Source of the DNA: a virus
Lineage: Duplodnaviria > Heunggongvirae > Uroviricota > Caudoviricetes
IMG/VR virus record: IMGVR_UViG_2667527998_000010
Reading direction: 5' to 3' (one strand)
DNA: 15,861 nt
A model generated the notes under the pieces. That model ran no database searches, had not been told where the DNA came from, and was given only the letters and a program-made list of their open reading frames with translations. Every line of letters begins with the position of its first letter. Position 1 is the stretch's first letter. A program made the position numbers and the translations under genes. This document shows, one piece after another, positions 2,553 to 9,003 of this stretch.

Positions 2553-4214
2553 TTACACCCCGCTAAATTCTTCCAGTTTCTGGCGGTGGCTGTCGCTTAT
2601 ATCAAAAGCAAAATCCTCATGCTCTGCCTGGAATGTACCAAACGCCATCAGCGCCGCTACGCTCGGGTCTATCTTGTTCGGTGATTTTTTCTTGTTCGGC
2701 TTGATATTGGCGTTCGCGTCACTCTGCATCACGACGTTACTCATCGACCAGGACAACACCGGATCGCCACGATGCACAATCACCCTGCGGTTAACAAAAA
2801 CTTCGAACGATTTCGCCGCCGGACTGAATCTGAGGTAGGTTTGCGGGAACGGCTCCACCTCAAAACCAGCCCCCTGTAATTGCGTCCTGAGATGCGTGGC
2901 GTTCCACGTATCAAAGCCCACCAGCCTGATATTAAATTTCTCCGCATCCTGCATGATGTCATCTCTGATCCGGTCGTAATCAATGCAGTCACCTGGCGTT
3001 GTGCGTATCCAGCCCGCTTTAGCCCACTGGCGATAGACAGCGCGGTTTTTATTGGCGGGGTTCTGTAGCTGGAACTCCGGCAGATAATGACGGGAAATCA
3101 GCATAATGGTTTTACCGACCGGAAAGGCATAGCATACGCTGGAAATATCGCTGGTTGATGATAAGTCCAGCCCCGCGTAACACTCCTGACCGTGTAAATC
3201 TTCCTCCGTGAACGTTCCGGCACACTCAGCCCATGCACCATTACCCATCCACGGGGTAGTCCCCTGACACCAGATATTAAATCGCTTTGTCATCATCTCC
3301 ACCCACTGCGACGGAATACCCCGCGCTTTCTGGATGGTTGAGGCCAGTTTTTCACGATCCACGGAAACATCAATATTAGGGTTCGCCTTTATCCACATCG
3401 CCGGATCATCAACCTCGTTTTCGTCGTCCAGTTCGTAAATCAGTACAAAAATTGAATCGTTAACCTCTTCGCCGTCCAGGATCTGGCAGCAATAATCATA
3501 GTGCTGTTTACAGGCTGAAACGACGTTACTGCCCGATGTGGTAATGGCAAATAACAGCCCTTCGGGACGTGCGCCCATCCCCAGCTCAAGCGCGGAATAA
3601 ACGCCGTTATCGGGGTGTAGGTGGTATTCGTCCACGATGGAAAGACTGGGGTTTGTCCCCTCGATGGTTGCCGCTTTTGCTGCCAGCGGCTTTAACAGGC
3701 TGTTGCTTTTCGGGTGTATCACCTTATGCGCCTGAATATTCACCCGCCTGCGTAACGGTCGGGATAAAAGGCACATCTGACGCGCATTATCAAACACGAT
3801 CCGCGCCTGGTCACGGCTCACCGCTGCGGTGTAGATATCCTGCTGACCGTTCTCCATAATCAGAAACCAGTTAGCCAGAATCGCGGCGGTCGTGGATTTC
3901 GCATTTTTGCGCGGCACTTCGATAAAGGCGCTCGTGTATTTGCGCCGTCCGGTGGCCTTAACCTTAAAGCCGAGGATGCACGCAAAGGCGAACTGCTGCC
4001 ACGGCTCCAGCTCAATGGGTCTGCCACGCATCGGTCCTTTTACGTGCGGGCACACCCTGGAAAAGGCAATAAACCGCTCCACAACCTCACGATCGAACGT
4101 GTAAAGGGGGCTTTTAAGGTCCGAAAAGTACCGTTTAACAGCCTGTTTTAACCGTTTACAGGCCGGAATTTTGCCCGTTTTTACGTCTTCTGCGTACTTA
4201 TTCCAGGCGGTCAA
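2553..4214 (-). CDS. terminase large subunit
   Basis: 553-aa ORF with the overall look of a phage TerL (ATPase N-terminal half, nuclease C-terminal half); overlaps the TerS 3' end by 17 nt. Confidence 0.88.
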   Translation of the reverse strand: MTAWNKYAEDVKTGKIPACKRLKQAVKRYFSDLKSPLYTFDREVVERFIAFSRVCPHVKGPMRGRPIELEPWQQFAFACILGFKVKATGRRKYTSAFIEVPRKNAKSTTAAILANWFLIMENGQQDIYTAAVSRDQARIVFDNARQMCLLSRPLRRRVNIQAHKVIHPKSNSLLKPLAAKAATIEGTNPSLSIVDEYHLHPDNGVYSALELGMGARPEGLLFAITTSGSNVVSACKQHYDYCCQILDGEEVNDSIFVLIYELDDENEVDDPAMWIKANPNIDVSVDREKLASTIQKARGIPSQWVEMMTKRFNIWCQGTTPWMGNGAWAECAGTFTEEDLHGQECYAGLDLSSTSDISSVCYAFPVGKTIMLISRHYLPEFQLQNPANKNRAVYRQWAKAGWIRTTPGDCIDYDRIRDDIMQDAEKFNIRLVGFDTWNATHLRTQLQGAGFEVEPFPQTYLRFSPAAKSFEVFVNRRVIVHRGDPVLSWSMSNVVMQSDANANIKPNKKKSPNKIDPSVAALMAFGTFQAEHEDFAFDISDSHRQKLEEFSGV

Positions 4215-4632
4215 GCTCGTCCTCTTCTTCTGTTTCCGGTGGATTTTTACGGCGGCTTATCGGGTCAAAACCGAGCAAGGAGGCCATTTTTATCATCACT
4301 CTTTCAGCGTCGGATTTTGCGCTTAATGCGGGGTTTCTGCTCTCGCCGCCCTGACTGTTAACAATGCTGAACCCGCGCGCCGCAAGGTCTGCAACGGCTT
4401 TCCGGTAAATGGAGTAGTTGACGCAATACAGTTCCAGATTGCTCCAGTCGGCGGGGGTCAGGTCTCCCCGTTCCGCAAGCTGCCGCGATTTTTCCCGCCA
4501 CTGCTTCACGGCGATATCATCCAGGTAGGCGGGGGCGGGGTTTTCNNNNNNNNNNNNNNNNNNNNNNNNNNNNNNNNNNNNNNNNNNNNNNNNNNNNNNN
4601 NNNNNNNCTGAAAACGCCCCCCACCCCGTCAT
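4198..4632 (-). CDS. terminase small subunit (P27-like), interrupted by N run
   Basis: C-terminal 110 aa (GDLTPADWSNLELYCVNYSIYRKA...LLGFDPISRRK) resembles P27-family TerS. N-terminal part is masked by N at 4546-4607, so the start is uncertain. Confidence 0.72.
   Translation of the reverse strand: MTGWGAFSXXXXXXXXXXXXXXXXXXXXXENPAPAYLDDIAVKQWREKSRQLAERGDLTPADWSNLELYCVNYSIYRKAVADLAARGFSIVNSQGGESRNPALSAKSDAERVMIKMASLLGFDPISRRKNPPETEEEDELDRLE
4546..4607. other. run of 62 N (masked or gap) inside terS
   Basis: Literal n characters in the sequence. Confidence 1.
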
Positions 4633-4807
4633 ACAGCCTCATCAGCGATTGCGGAAACATTCCATAACCTCGCGGTCACGGTCGGTTAATCGCTTCGCTG
4701 TGATGCGTTCTGCGCGTCCTGACGCTTTATCTTTATGCCCTGTTTCCTGTGTCTTCCATGCGTCACGCTGCCTTATAAGTCCACGGATAAGGCGGTTTTG
4801 TTCCCGC

Positions 4808-5310
4808 TCATTCATCAGCGTCATACATCCAGTTATTGCGGTTAGCAGCCCGTTCTTCCTCTTCACGAAATCCACCTGCGGCACGCTTGCTTTTTGTTGC
4901 CGGATCAAGCCATTTCGTTTTCTGGTTATGACACGCCTGGCACAATGGTTGATGGTTCCATTCGGGCCAGAAGAGAACATCATCACCGCCATTAATCGGG
5001 ATAATGTGATCCACCACCACGGCGGGCGTATATATCCCCTTCTCNNNNNNNNNNNNNNNNNNNNNNNNNNNNNNNNNNNNNNNNNNNNNNNNNNNNNNNN
5101 NNNNNNNNNNNNNNNNNNNNNNNNNNNNNNNNNNNNNNNNNNNNNNNNNNNNNNNNNNNNNNNNNNNNNNNNNNNNNNNNNNNNNNNNNNNTGTCCTCGT
5201 CTGGCATCCTCTGCACGCCATGCCGCCCGCCTGTGCTCCTCACACTTGCCGGATTTAACGCGCCTGTTACAGCCTGGTTCTGTGCATCGTCTTAATGGTT
5301 GCCACGGCAT
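4808..5310 (-). CDS. HNH endonuclease (packaging-associated), interrupted by N run
   Basis: N-terminus MPWQPLRRCTEPGCNRRVKSGKCEEHRR (Cys pairs) before the N run; catalytic motif DHIIPINGGDDVLFWPEWNHQPLCQACHNQKT after it. The two parts are in different frames, so the N run (5045-5191) does not preserve the real length. Confidence 0.7.
5045..5191. other. run of 147 N (masked or gap) inside the HNH gene
   Basis: Literal n characters; reading frame differs on the two sides. Confidence 1.
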
Positions 5311-5642
5311 CAGTACCCCCCCACATCACGGTAAGCCGTCCAGAGTGCGCCTATCGTCATGGGTACGCGTGTTTTTGCGTTATCCGCGACAATCTGGCGA
5401 TTTTCATACAGGTGAGCGATAAACATCATGCAGCCAATCTTTATGGCTGGGGTGNNNNNNNNNNNNNNNNNNNNNNNNNNNNNNNNNNNNNNNNNNNNNN
5501 NNNNNNNNNNNNNNCTGCCTATGTGTATCTGGCACGCCTCAAGCGATGCGGCAATGTATCCGCTGATTAACTGGTCTTCATCGTCGCCATCGATGCGGCA
5601 ATGGAGTTTCACTTCTTCCAGGGTGATAAGTTCTTCTGTCAT
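5310..5642 (-). CDS. gp6-like head-tail connector protein, contains N run
   Basis: N-terminus MTEELITLEEVKLHCRIDGDDEDQLISGYIAASLE matches the gp6-like connector pattern. Stop overlaps the HNH start (TGATG). Confidence 0.62.
   Translation of the reverse strand: MTEELITLEEVKLHCRIDGDDEDQLISGYIAASLEACQIHIGXXXXXXXXXXXXXXXXXXXXXTPAIKIGCMMFIAHLYENRQIVADNAKTRVPMTIGALWTAYRDVGGY
5455..5514. other. run of 60 N (masked or gap) inside the connector gene
   Basis: Literal n characters in the sequence. Confidence 1.
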
Positions 5643-7806: not shown

Positions 7807-7814
7807 AAAACACT

Positions 7815-7835
7815 AAAGGGGCTTTTTAGCCCCTT
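7815..7835 (-). terminator. stem-loop between capsid and protease genes (possible attenuator)
   Basis: 7-bp stem AAGGGGC/GCCCCTT with 6-nt loop, followed on the minus strand by a moderately T-rich stretch. Confidence 0.4.
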
Positions 7836-7845
7836 CTGTATGCTG

Positions 7846-9003
7846 TTAATCGTCGTCTTCCGGCAGTGCCAGAATCTTGATCGCGTTCGAATCCACCACG
7901 CCACCGCCTAAATATTTTTGCGTGAAAATTTTGATGAATCCTGGTTCTGTCAGGTTGTCCGGTCTGGTGCGAACACCTGTTTCGTGATCAACAATGTAGT
8001 AACCGCGTTTGAAGTCACCCAGGGCAATAACGTTATCAGGCATAAACTCCAGATATTCGACCGGAAGGCCCAGCAACGTATCAGGATCACCCGCCTGTAA
8101 ACGGTCGCGCCAGATATAATCACCGTTCGCGTTCTTCACCTTCTGAAGTTTTGCCGCCGTCGTGGAGTTAACCACTCAGACCGCGTTTTTGCGGTATTTT
8201 TTACGTAATGCAAATTTCAGGTCGATCAGCGGGTCCGCAGATGTCCACGCCAGAGATTCGGAAGGTTTAATTACCTGCAACGTACCAAAATCACGCTCTT
8301 TGTCGTTCTTCTCTGCACGGGGTACGGATAAAAAACCTTTTGCTTTTTTGTCACCGTCGCCCACAACCAGATCGCTTTCTTCGGTTTCCGTGAAGGTGTC
8401 GCCAATCTCACCCGTCAGCCATGAAAGGATGTCCACATCGGAAAAATCCACGATTTCCTGTGTGGTGCGCGGGTACGCATAGACCGGATACAGCTTAATG
8501 CTCACCTCGTTAATCTGCGGGGTGCTGGTCTGTTCGCGTGCCTTACCCTCTTCACCGTGGTTAACGGTCGCACCGCCAGCGGAAACAAGCTGCTTAAACT
8601 CGTTGCTGCTGATTTTCTTCACGGTACAGATGCGACGCATGGTGGATTCATCCGCCAGCATTCGCATGATTTCGGTGTTCAGTTCAGGGATAACGGTATA
8701 ACCACCATCAGCGGGAACGCCTGTACTTAATGCGCGGGTTTCACCGGTCAGAATGTAGTTACGTAGTTCTGCGGGGTCAGTGGTCTGGCTGCTTTTACCT
8801 GGCTTGCTGCGCTCTTCGTCTGCAATGGCTTCAAGGCGGGAAATGTCTTTATCGAGGGATTCAGCTTTAGCGCGTAATTCGTCAAATTTTGCGCCCTCAG
8901 CATCGTTAAGACTGCGGTTTTCTTTTTCAGCGTTCTCCAGCATGTCGCGCATCTGATTTTTAATGGCGGTTTTCTGCTGGCGTAATTCGATTATTCTCTG
9001 CAT
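7846..9003 (-). pseudogene. HK97-fold major capsid protein with N-terminal coiled-coil domain, interrupted by in-frame TGA at 8176-8178
   Basis: ORFs 8176..9051 and 7846..8175 are in the same frame, separated only by TGA. Joined sequence reads ...ALRKKYRKNAV*VNSTTAAKLQKVKNANGDYIW, where the stop sits at a position usually aromatic in this fold. Preferred start is ATG at 9003 (AGGA 8 nt upstream), not the GTG at 9051. Confidence 0.78.

Follow-up and report, generated by a model that had tools for sequence, protein, structure and literature searches.

The stretch of DNA analysed here (the window, 15,861 nucleotides of IMG/VR virus record IMGVR_UViG_2667527998_000010) carries on its minus strand, at 9003..2553, a module of head and DNA-packaging genes whose limits are the capsid ATG and the end of the stop codon of the large terminase gene. 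With high confidence, this region is the packaging operon of a capsid-forming phage-inducible chromosomal island (cf-PICI) of the EcCIEDL933 type, inserted in the roxA-phoQ interval. The unusual order of its genes is genuine, and it is an already published hallmark of Proteobacterial cf-PICIs with nothing new in it. The order is the signature of a satellite that makes its heads itself and pirates nothing but tails, as published in 2022-2023, and the value for annotation is that the window should be labelled an EcCIEDL933-type cf-PICI at roxA/phoQ, and not a cryptic prophage or a novel arrangement, with flags on a capsid gene that is likely defective or mis-sequenced, and on four unreliable N-filled gaps.

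Gene order and identity of the packaging module

Two closed genomes served as references for BLAST of the window, MFDS1006657 (L001, 98% identical) and EDL933 (L018). In transcription order, with every gene on the minus strand, the module opens with an HK97-fold major capsid protein gene (7846..9003), matched by Pfam Phage_capsid on both halves (9051/9003..8179 and 8175..7846), and continues with an HK97-type prohead serine protease of 190 amino acids (7234..7806; Peptidase_S78, E = 7e-48) and a portal protein of 403 amino acids (6021..7232; Phage_portal, E = 7.6e-88; ratio of nonsynonymous to synonymous substitution rates, dN/dS, of 0.08). Two neck genes follow: a head-closure or head completion protein (5639..6024; Phage_HCP, PF05521; "Hc1", or "adaptor" in the cf-PICI papers), recovered by tblastn as residues 1-78 and 81-112, and a gp6-like head-tail connector (5310..5642; Phage_connect_1, PF05135; "Ad1", or "connector" in the same papers). 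The HNH endonuclease (4808..5310; Pfam HNH) was recovered by tblastn at 100% identity as residues 1-39 and 69-146 in two frames, and precedes a conserved open reading frame (ORF) of 60 amino acids (4642..4824) that is 100% identical to WP_000174068.1 of L001 and EDL933 and matches phrog_3173. The small terminase TerS, of the P27/Terminase_4 family (4198..4554; Pfam Terminase_4), is matched by tblastn over residues 7-118 at 100% identity (4536..4201); its start codon and first six codons lie under a run of N, and its start position is placed from the L001 coordinates. The large terminase TerL (553 amino acids, 2553..4214; Pfam TerL_ATPase and TerL_nuclease; dN/dS 0.03 against EDL933) is the last core gene of the operon. 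The Pfam assignments agree with the gene identities and the order (capsid, protease and portal, then adaptor and connector, then HNH, TerS, TerL) given in a preliminary description of this DNA, which also placed the packaging module after the replication module; a D5-type primase does lie upstream, at 12095..10347.

The junctions are tight, as judged from spacings measured on the intact EDL933 allele and mapped back onto the window. A gap of 39 nucleotides (nt) separates capsid from protease and one of 1 nt protease from portal; portal and head closure, and head closure and connector, overlap by ATGA, connector and HNH by TGATG, HNH and the 60-residue ORF by 17 nt, and TerS and TerL by another 17 nt, TerL having a TTG start. 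Across the module, five junctions thus overlap, in keeping with the many overlaps noted earlier, and the 123-nt gap between the 60-residue ORF and TerS is the only long one. The module is followed, after 13 nt, by an ORF of 93 residues.

The contrast with phages is borne out by the phage records themselves. The HK97 record runs TerS, TerL, portal, protease, capsid, Ad1 and Hc1, with HNH at the right end beside cos, and the same order is found in ST64B and in Pseudomonas phage VW-6S, the true phage with the highest full-length capsid identity to the window element; the canonical order assumed in the preliminary description is therefore correct. Since all genes of the module are co-directional, one inversion cannot yield the observed order, and several rearrangements or a piecewise assembly are needed. 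For the same reason, an apparent inversion caused by reading the wrong strand was rejected, as a single inversion keeps the transcription order of genes that all lie on the minus strand.

The identity of the element is established by its insertion site, its gene content and its closeness to a characterized island. In EDL933, an island of 15.2 kb, with the 21-bp repeat CGGTGTAGTTAATGGTGTAGT on either side, occupies the roxA-phoQ interval, and the same direct repeat flanks the island in L001. In the window, phoQ is the first gene (1..1461, plus strand), the island boundary adjoins it, and the 21-bp att core ACTACACCATTAACTACACCG is matched exactly at 1542..1562 (plus strand), where none is expected by chance. 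The partner repeat lies 27 nt past the int start in L001 and EDL933, giving islands of 14.7 and 15.2 kb, respectively; by this geometry the window island would measure about 14.4 kb, with the second att copy predicted about 27 nt beyond the window end, and it would fall within the size of about 10-18 kb that the first criterion of He et al. (bioRxiv 10.1101/2025.02.11.637232) sets for an att-bounded island. An integrase, an AlpA-type regulator and a replication module are all present upstream of the packaging genes. The marks of an HK97-like prophage are lacking: the order differs, Pfam and PHROGs point to no tail or lysis genes, and the island spans about 14 kb as against about 40 kb.

The packaging module shares 96.2-98.6% nucleotide identity with EDL933, over the stretch that runs from 280 nt 5' of the capsid gene through the gene following TerL, and dN/dS between the two copies ranges from 0.03 to 0.23 among the module genes, indicating purifying selection. 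The EDL933 island carries, ahead of the ten-gene packaging operon, int and the genes of a helix-turn-helix (HTH) regulator, an Icd-like protein, DUF4222 and a DUF927 replication protein. It corresponds to EcCIEDL933, the prototype cf-PICI, from E. coli O157:H7, a 15.4-kb element in which int, alpA and rep accompany a full set of head and packaging genes, each packaging gene being needed for transfer (Alqurainy et al., bioRxiv 10.1101/2022.09.08.507074). The window element shares with it the insertion site, the 21-bp att repeat and the order and junctions of the ten-gene operon, and the two integrases are 95% identical; the synteny comparison called for in the preliminary description therefore gives equal orders. 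It differs in its D5-type primase, where EDL933 has the DUF927 protein, in the small genes between the primase and capsid genes, which are not alike, and in its private capsid TGA and four N runs. The order itself (capsid-protease-portal-connectors, then hnh-terS-terL) has been described as conserved in Proteobacterial cf-PICIs, the phage and PICI modules were said to "have different genetic organisations", the contrast being drawn with the helper phage, and the capsid and TerL trees of that study contain cf-PICI-only clades (Alqurainy et al., bioRxiv 10.1101/2022.09.08.507074). The same order has since served as a criterion in searching for cf-PICIs (He et al., bioRxiv 10.1101/2025.02.11.637232).

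Conservation among satellites and distance from phages

The same order was found in 356 of the 5426 complete E. coli genomes (coverage of at least 80%) and, by tblastn with the ten proteins, in genomes of Shigella, Citrobacter, Erwinia and Gilliamella. Satellite-sized records of Klebsiella and Pasteurella have it too: "Escherichia phage vB_KppS-Ant" (L015, 16.5 kb) and "Pasteurella phage Pmp8" (L016, 15.3 kb), both of them cf-PICIs listed under phages. Among the IMG/VR loci with capsid identity of 58-100%, all 80 are compatible with the order and 56 show it completely, the other 24 being truncated contigs or loci in which a neck gene is undetected or absent; the phage order was seen in none of the 80. 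The order lies far beyond chance, since every close relative examined shows it unchanged. The homologue listing covers matches of at least 66% identity only and is silent on where the order switches, and the single-protein contig scan (12 loci, 7 of them distant) was useful for five genera and not for the intermediate zone.

KpCIDSM30104, EcCIGN02175, vB_KppS-Ant and Pmp8 illustrate the breadth of this group: they share the module order and the satellite size (15-16.5 kb), the adaptor/connector cassette being the variable part, and they differ from the window element in capsid identity (58-66%), in TerL identity (69-81%) and in accessory and regulatory genes, which are not alike.

Capsid and TerL fall in a group that is set off from phages by an identity gap, as the preliminary description had proposed to check. 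The window capsid shares 99% identity with its counterpart in L001, the nearest closed genome, and 98.7% with the EDL933 capsid. In the phage collection, capsid identity is 58-65% in satellite-sized records and in one 106-kb record with a terminal cf-PICI, and then falls to 40% or less; TerL identity is 69-82% in satellite records and 36% or less in true phages. In a library of 1.84 billion representatives, full-length capsid matches likewise drop from about 60-63% to 40%. Taken over all sets, capsid identity is thus 58-100% within the group as against at most 40% outside it. A neighbour-joining (NJ) capsid tree, star-like and without bootstrap, was used to pick neighbours and not to prove monophyly. 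The 106.5-kb record, PQ569648.1 "Klebsiella phage P12620-1" (L115), is a cf-PICI in its last ~16 kb, and looks as if unrelated DNA had been joined to a cos-linearised cf-PICI.

HK97-like phages (HK97, ST64B, VW-6S and the helper HK106) nevertheless resemble the window element in their parts: an HK97-fold capsid with a delta domain, an S78 protease, a portal, gp6-like and gp7-like neck proteins, cos packaging by HNH, P27-type TerS and TerL, a hairpin after the capsid gene and tightly coupled junctions. They differ in the order of these parts (HNH-cos-TerS-TerL-portal-protease-capsid-Ad1-Hc1, then tail genes), in the low capsid and TerL identities given above, and in having a genome of about 40 kb and T=7 heads, as against about 15 kb and T=4 for cf-PICIs, the T=4 figure coming from EcCIEDL933. 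Firmicutes cf-PICIs have the gene content and the tail-stealing strategy of the EcCIEDL933-type element; they form two groups, with operons starting portal-protease-capsid or HNH-TerS-TerL, that have been judged to be of independent origin (Alqurainy et al., bioRxiv 10.1101/2022.09.08.507074). In two Bartonella metagenome-assembled genomes (L010, L012), portal .. capsid and HNH .. TerS, TerL lie beside an integrase gene, with the trio in phage order and the terminase genes downstream, a layout that resembles one of those of the Firmicutes cf-PICIs.

Neck genes, possible decay and the draft sequence

The preliminary description held that the connector pair is inverted. Against HK97 the pair is indeed reversed in the window, and to that extent the claim stands; whether the reversal was an inversion of a pair is a different matter. 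An alternative with an appreciable though minor share of the probability accepts the order as real and denies the inversion: the ancestor would have carried the gp6-like gene only, or the pair in phage order, and the head-closure gene would have been inserted later, between portal and connector, as a tail-matching cassette. In twelve clade members (~14%), portal is followed at once by Phage_connect_1 and that by HNH, leaving no space for a PF05521 gene; an outgroup contig (L103) has connect_1 and then the head-closure gene; the head-closure protein is the most divergent of the module (39-47% identity versus 57-62% for the connector); and the adaptor/connector pair, which sets tail specificity, is exchanged among modules that are otherwise alike in full (He et al., bioRxiv 10.1101/2025.02.11.637232). 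Nevertheless, loss of the head-closure gene in the twelve loci is equally parsimonious as long as no rooted phylogeny is at hand, and the NJ tree is unresolved and carries no bootstrap support. The portal-HNH interval without a head-closure gene is seen, for example, in L005 (12985-13305), L033, L034, L036, L044, L045, L054 and L079; an Erwinia psidii element is among the clade members without the PF05521 gene. An extra Phage_HCP match lies about 5 kb beyond TerL in L079.

Beyond the clade, capsid-first elements occur at capsid identities near 40%. The L103 contig (P0128, Logan SRR28502134; 11.6 kb; 40%) reads int, DUF3987 primase, capsid, protease, portal, connect_1, head closure, HNH, TerS and TerL, and is thus capsid-first with its neck pair in phage order, and P0126 (L101-L102, from JGI metagenomes; 40%) has int and HTH_17 followed by capsid, protease, portal, HNH and TerS, neither connectors nor TerL being seen; in the NJ tree without support values, both stand beside the EcCIEDL933 clade. 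P0132 (L107; 38%) reads TerL, capsid, protease, portal and int, P0131 (38%) and P0134 (40%) are ordinary prophages of canonical order, and P0135, P0161 and P0162 (35-39%) are lone capsid genes in integrase-bearing elements; the P0137 contig is too short to show its surroundings. It is conceivable, if on balance unlikely, that the capsid-protease-portal order is an older and possibly recurrent signature of small integrative capsid-encoding satellites beyond the EcCIEDL933 clade. If this were true, it would imply a stepwise construction of cf-PICI operons and selection for a capsid-first, stoichiometry-graded operon in elements without phage late antitermination; the clade members that lack a head-closure gene and the distant capsid-first lineages offer material for an evolutionary study of operon assembly. 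Lone HK97-fold capsid genes, 35-39% identical in product to the cf-PICI capsid and with no adjacent portal or protease gene, were observed in the integrase-bearing elements L109, L113 and L114, which may be capsid-only satellites; L109 and L114 carry an HTH_17 regulator gene, L109 also has a DUF3987 primase, and L113 and L114, but not L109, stand beside the EcCIEDL933 clade in the unsupported tree.

That the module is instead the remnant of a decayed and scrambled HK97-like prophage, whose order would have no functional meaning, is very improbable. The name of the source of one homologue still reads "prophage CP-933C", after the old annotation of EcCIEDL933 as "cryptic prophage CP-933C"; the window capsid gene contains a nonsense codon; and deletion derivatives exist, among them Rosenbergiella sp. 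YN46 (L003, 6678), L031 and L042. These indications are outweighed by the retention of order and gene set across families of Gammaproteobacteria, with capsid identities of 58-100% and in elements of a uniform size of 14-18 kb, by the low dN/dS values, by the mutagenesis in which each gene was required for transfer (Alqurainy et al., bioRxiv 10.1101/2022.09.08.507074), by the transfer with helper tails already published for EcCIEDL933, and by the fact that the nonsense codon is private to the window sequence. In the Rosenbergiella element, the portal gene is joined without a break to the C-terminus of TerL, and the element is a deletion derivative without neck genes, HNH, TerS and most of TerL; L031 and L042 are without both neck genes and have a truncated portal.

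The nonsense codon, an in-frame TGA, occupies 8176-8178, a position at which TGG (Trp276 of 385) stands in EDL933 and L001, and it would cut 110 residues from the capsid protein. It occurs in none of the 349 complete E. coli genomes that carry the corresponding 80-mer, and reflects either an error of sequencing in a poor draft or a recent knockout. Given this premature stop, the window copy of the island is probably disabled or mis-sequenced, and may be unable to form its own capsids. The rest of the capsid gene is under strong purifying selection.

The least tenable alternative, and one almost certainly wrong, is that the order is an assembly or scaffolding artefact of contigs misjoined across the N runs, the condition under which the preliminary description would have withdrawn its reading: four such runs within 1.25 kb, with lengths off the true sequence, do mark a poorly assembled stretch, but all pieces around and between them are collinear and on the same strand against both closed genomes, the capsid-protease-portal and TerS-TerL blocks are free of N, and the same order recurs in the 356 complete genomes and in many genera.

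The runs (4546-4607, 5045-5191, 5455-5514 and 5738-5789) measure 62, 147, 60 and 52 nt, where the two closed genomes have about 97, 85, 24 and 5 nt, and the stretch is a matter of poor local assembly and not of rearrangement. The second run (147 N for 85 nt) breaks the HNH frame and the fourth (52 N for 5 nt) that of the head-closure gene; the third lies within the connector gene. Because of the length mismatch, the head-closure, HNH and TerS frames are broken here, so that the head-closure gene ends early and HNH lies in two frames, and for the same reason a 222-residue ORF at 4642..5310 is a read-through artefact. The possibility that the runs are one-to-one masks was rejected, since three of the four shift the frame and all four differ in length from both closed genomes.

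Proposed operation, probable packaging site and remaining genes

As an EcCIEDL933-type cf-PICI, the element would express the operon as one co-directional transcript from the conserved leader 5' of the capsid gene, as the anatomy suggests, and would make its own small HK97-fold capsid from the major capsid protein, the S78 protease, the portal, the head-closure protein and the gp6-like connector, together with a private HNH/TerS/TerL machinery for cos packaging. The T=4 heads would load some 14-15 kb of island DNA and then join helper-phage tails, steps that are experimental for EcCIEDL933 and are transferred here by homology. The cf-PICI capsid is a T=4 shell, 47.5 nm across, with 240 positions for the major capsid protein, and the ends of cf-PICI DNA are cohesive (He et al., bioRxiv 10.1101/2025.02.11.637232). 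The gene order is a fixed organisation inherited within the satellite lineage, and not a local rearrangement: capsid, protease, portal, closure, connector, HNH, cos, TerS, TerL. It may persist, as a rationale and not a result, in that it runs roughly from the most- to the least-needed product: each head would take about 235 copies of the capsid protein, the protease in a copy number not established, 12 each of the portal and neck proteins, and catalytic amounts of terminase. The hairpin after the capsid gene may raise the ratio of capsid to downstream expression, and the downstream genes are probably coupled in translation; hairpin and coupled junctions together would fit a graded output in an operon without a phage late antiterminator. 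The arrangement also keeps HNH-cos-TerS-TerL contiguous at the att-proximal end.

The hairpin, GC-rich and followed by a T run, was found by a terminator scan at 7815..7836 (minus strand), within the 39-nt gap 3' of the capsid gene. It occupies the same position in cf-PICIs of six genera, with differing stem sequences, and is a candidate attenuator or mRNA-stabilising stem. An equivalent hairpin is present in ST64B and VW-6S, and the HK97 record has a putative terminator annotated there. The conserved leader of 280 nt (9004..9284, minus strand), presumed to be the promoter region, is bounded by a terminator-like hairpin at 9284..9267 (minus strand) from the same scan, and homology to EDL933 and L001 stops at 9285.

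The interval between the 60-residue ORF and TerS (4546..4641, minus strand) is the probable cos, or terminase recognition, site and a candidate for TerS binding, and lies mostly under the first N run; the counterpart of window 4555-4641 in EDL933 is 42341-42463. Between the 60-residue ORF (or HNH) and TerS lie non-coding blocks, GGGGTGGGGG and CCTCAAATTTTTAYGCAC..ATTTTTT, whose conservation spans Enterobacteriaceae, Erwinia, Gilliamella and Pasteurella. The linear vB_KppS-Ant record ends inside the HNH-TerS intergenic region, and its ends are suggestive only as a mark of cos.

Several points weigh against this account. The capsid gene of the window has a stop and three genes are unreadable over the N runs, so that function cannot be asserted for this copy; phages with capsid third in the trio have a similar hairpin after it, which is therefore not specific to the order; and the stoichiometric rationale is a proposal only. 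The place of cos is itself a deduction; the vB_KppS-Ant record lacks about 70 nt of the intergenic region, and its depositor may have chosen where it begins and ends. A sigma-70 scan identified no promoter on the minus strand 5' of the capsid gene, the site counts being at or below shuffle expectation.

After phoQ, the island is transcribed on the minus strand, with the integrase at its far end. The tyrosine integrase (14632..15861; Pfam Phage_integrase and Arm-DNA-bind_3) is followed by the AlpA-like HTH regulator (14072..14257), which tblastn matches at 100% identity to the HTH regulator of L001. An ORF of 248 residues (13265-14011, minus strand), with no Pfam or PHROG match, sits between alpA and a repressor-like gene, in the region downstream of alpA that has been described as variable and functionally unknown (He et al., bioRxiv 10.1101/2025.02.11.637232). 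A DUF4222 gene (12391..12092, minus strand; Pfam DUF4222) lies 5' of the D5-type primase/helicase (10347..12095, minus strand; Pfam D5_N, DUF5906 and Pox_D5), which represents the replication module, and the remaining ORFs are small unknowns or regulators. At the other end of the module, the conserved 93-residue ORF 3' of TerL (2258..2539, minus strand) is 100% identical to an L001 protein and matches phrog_1561.

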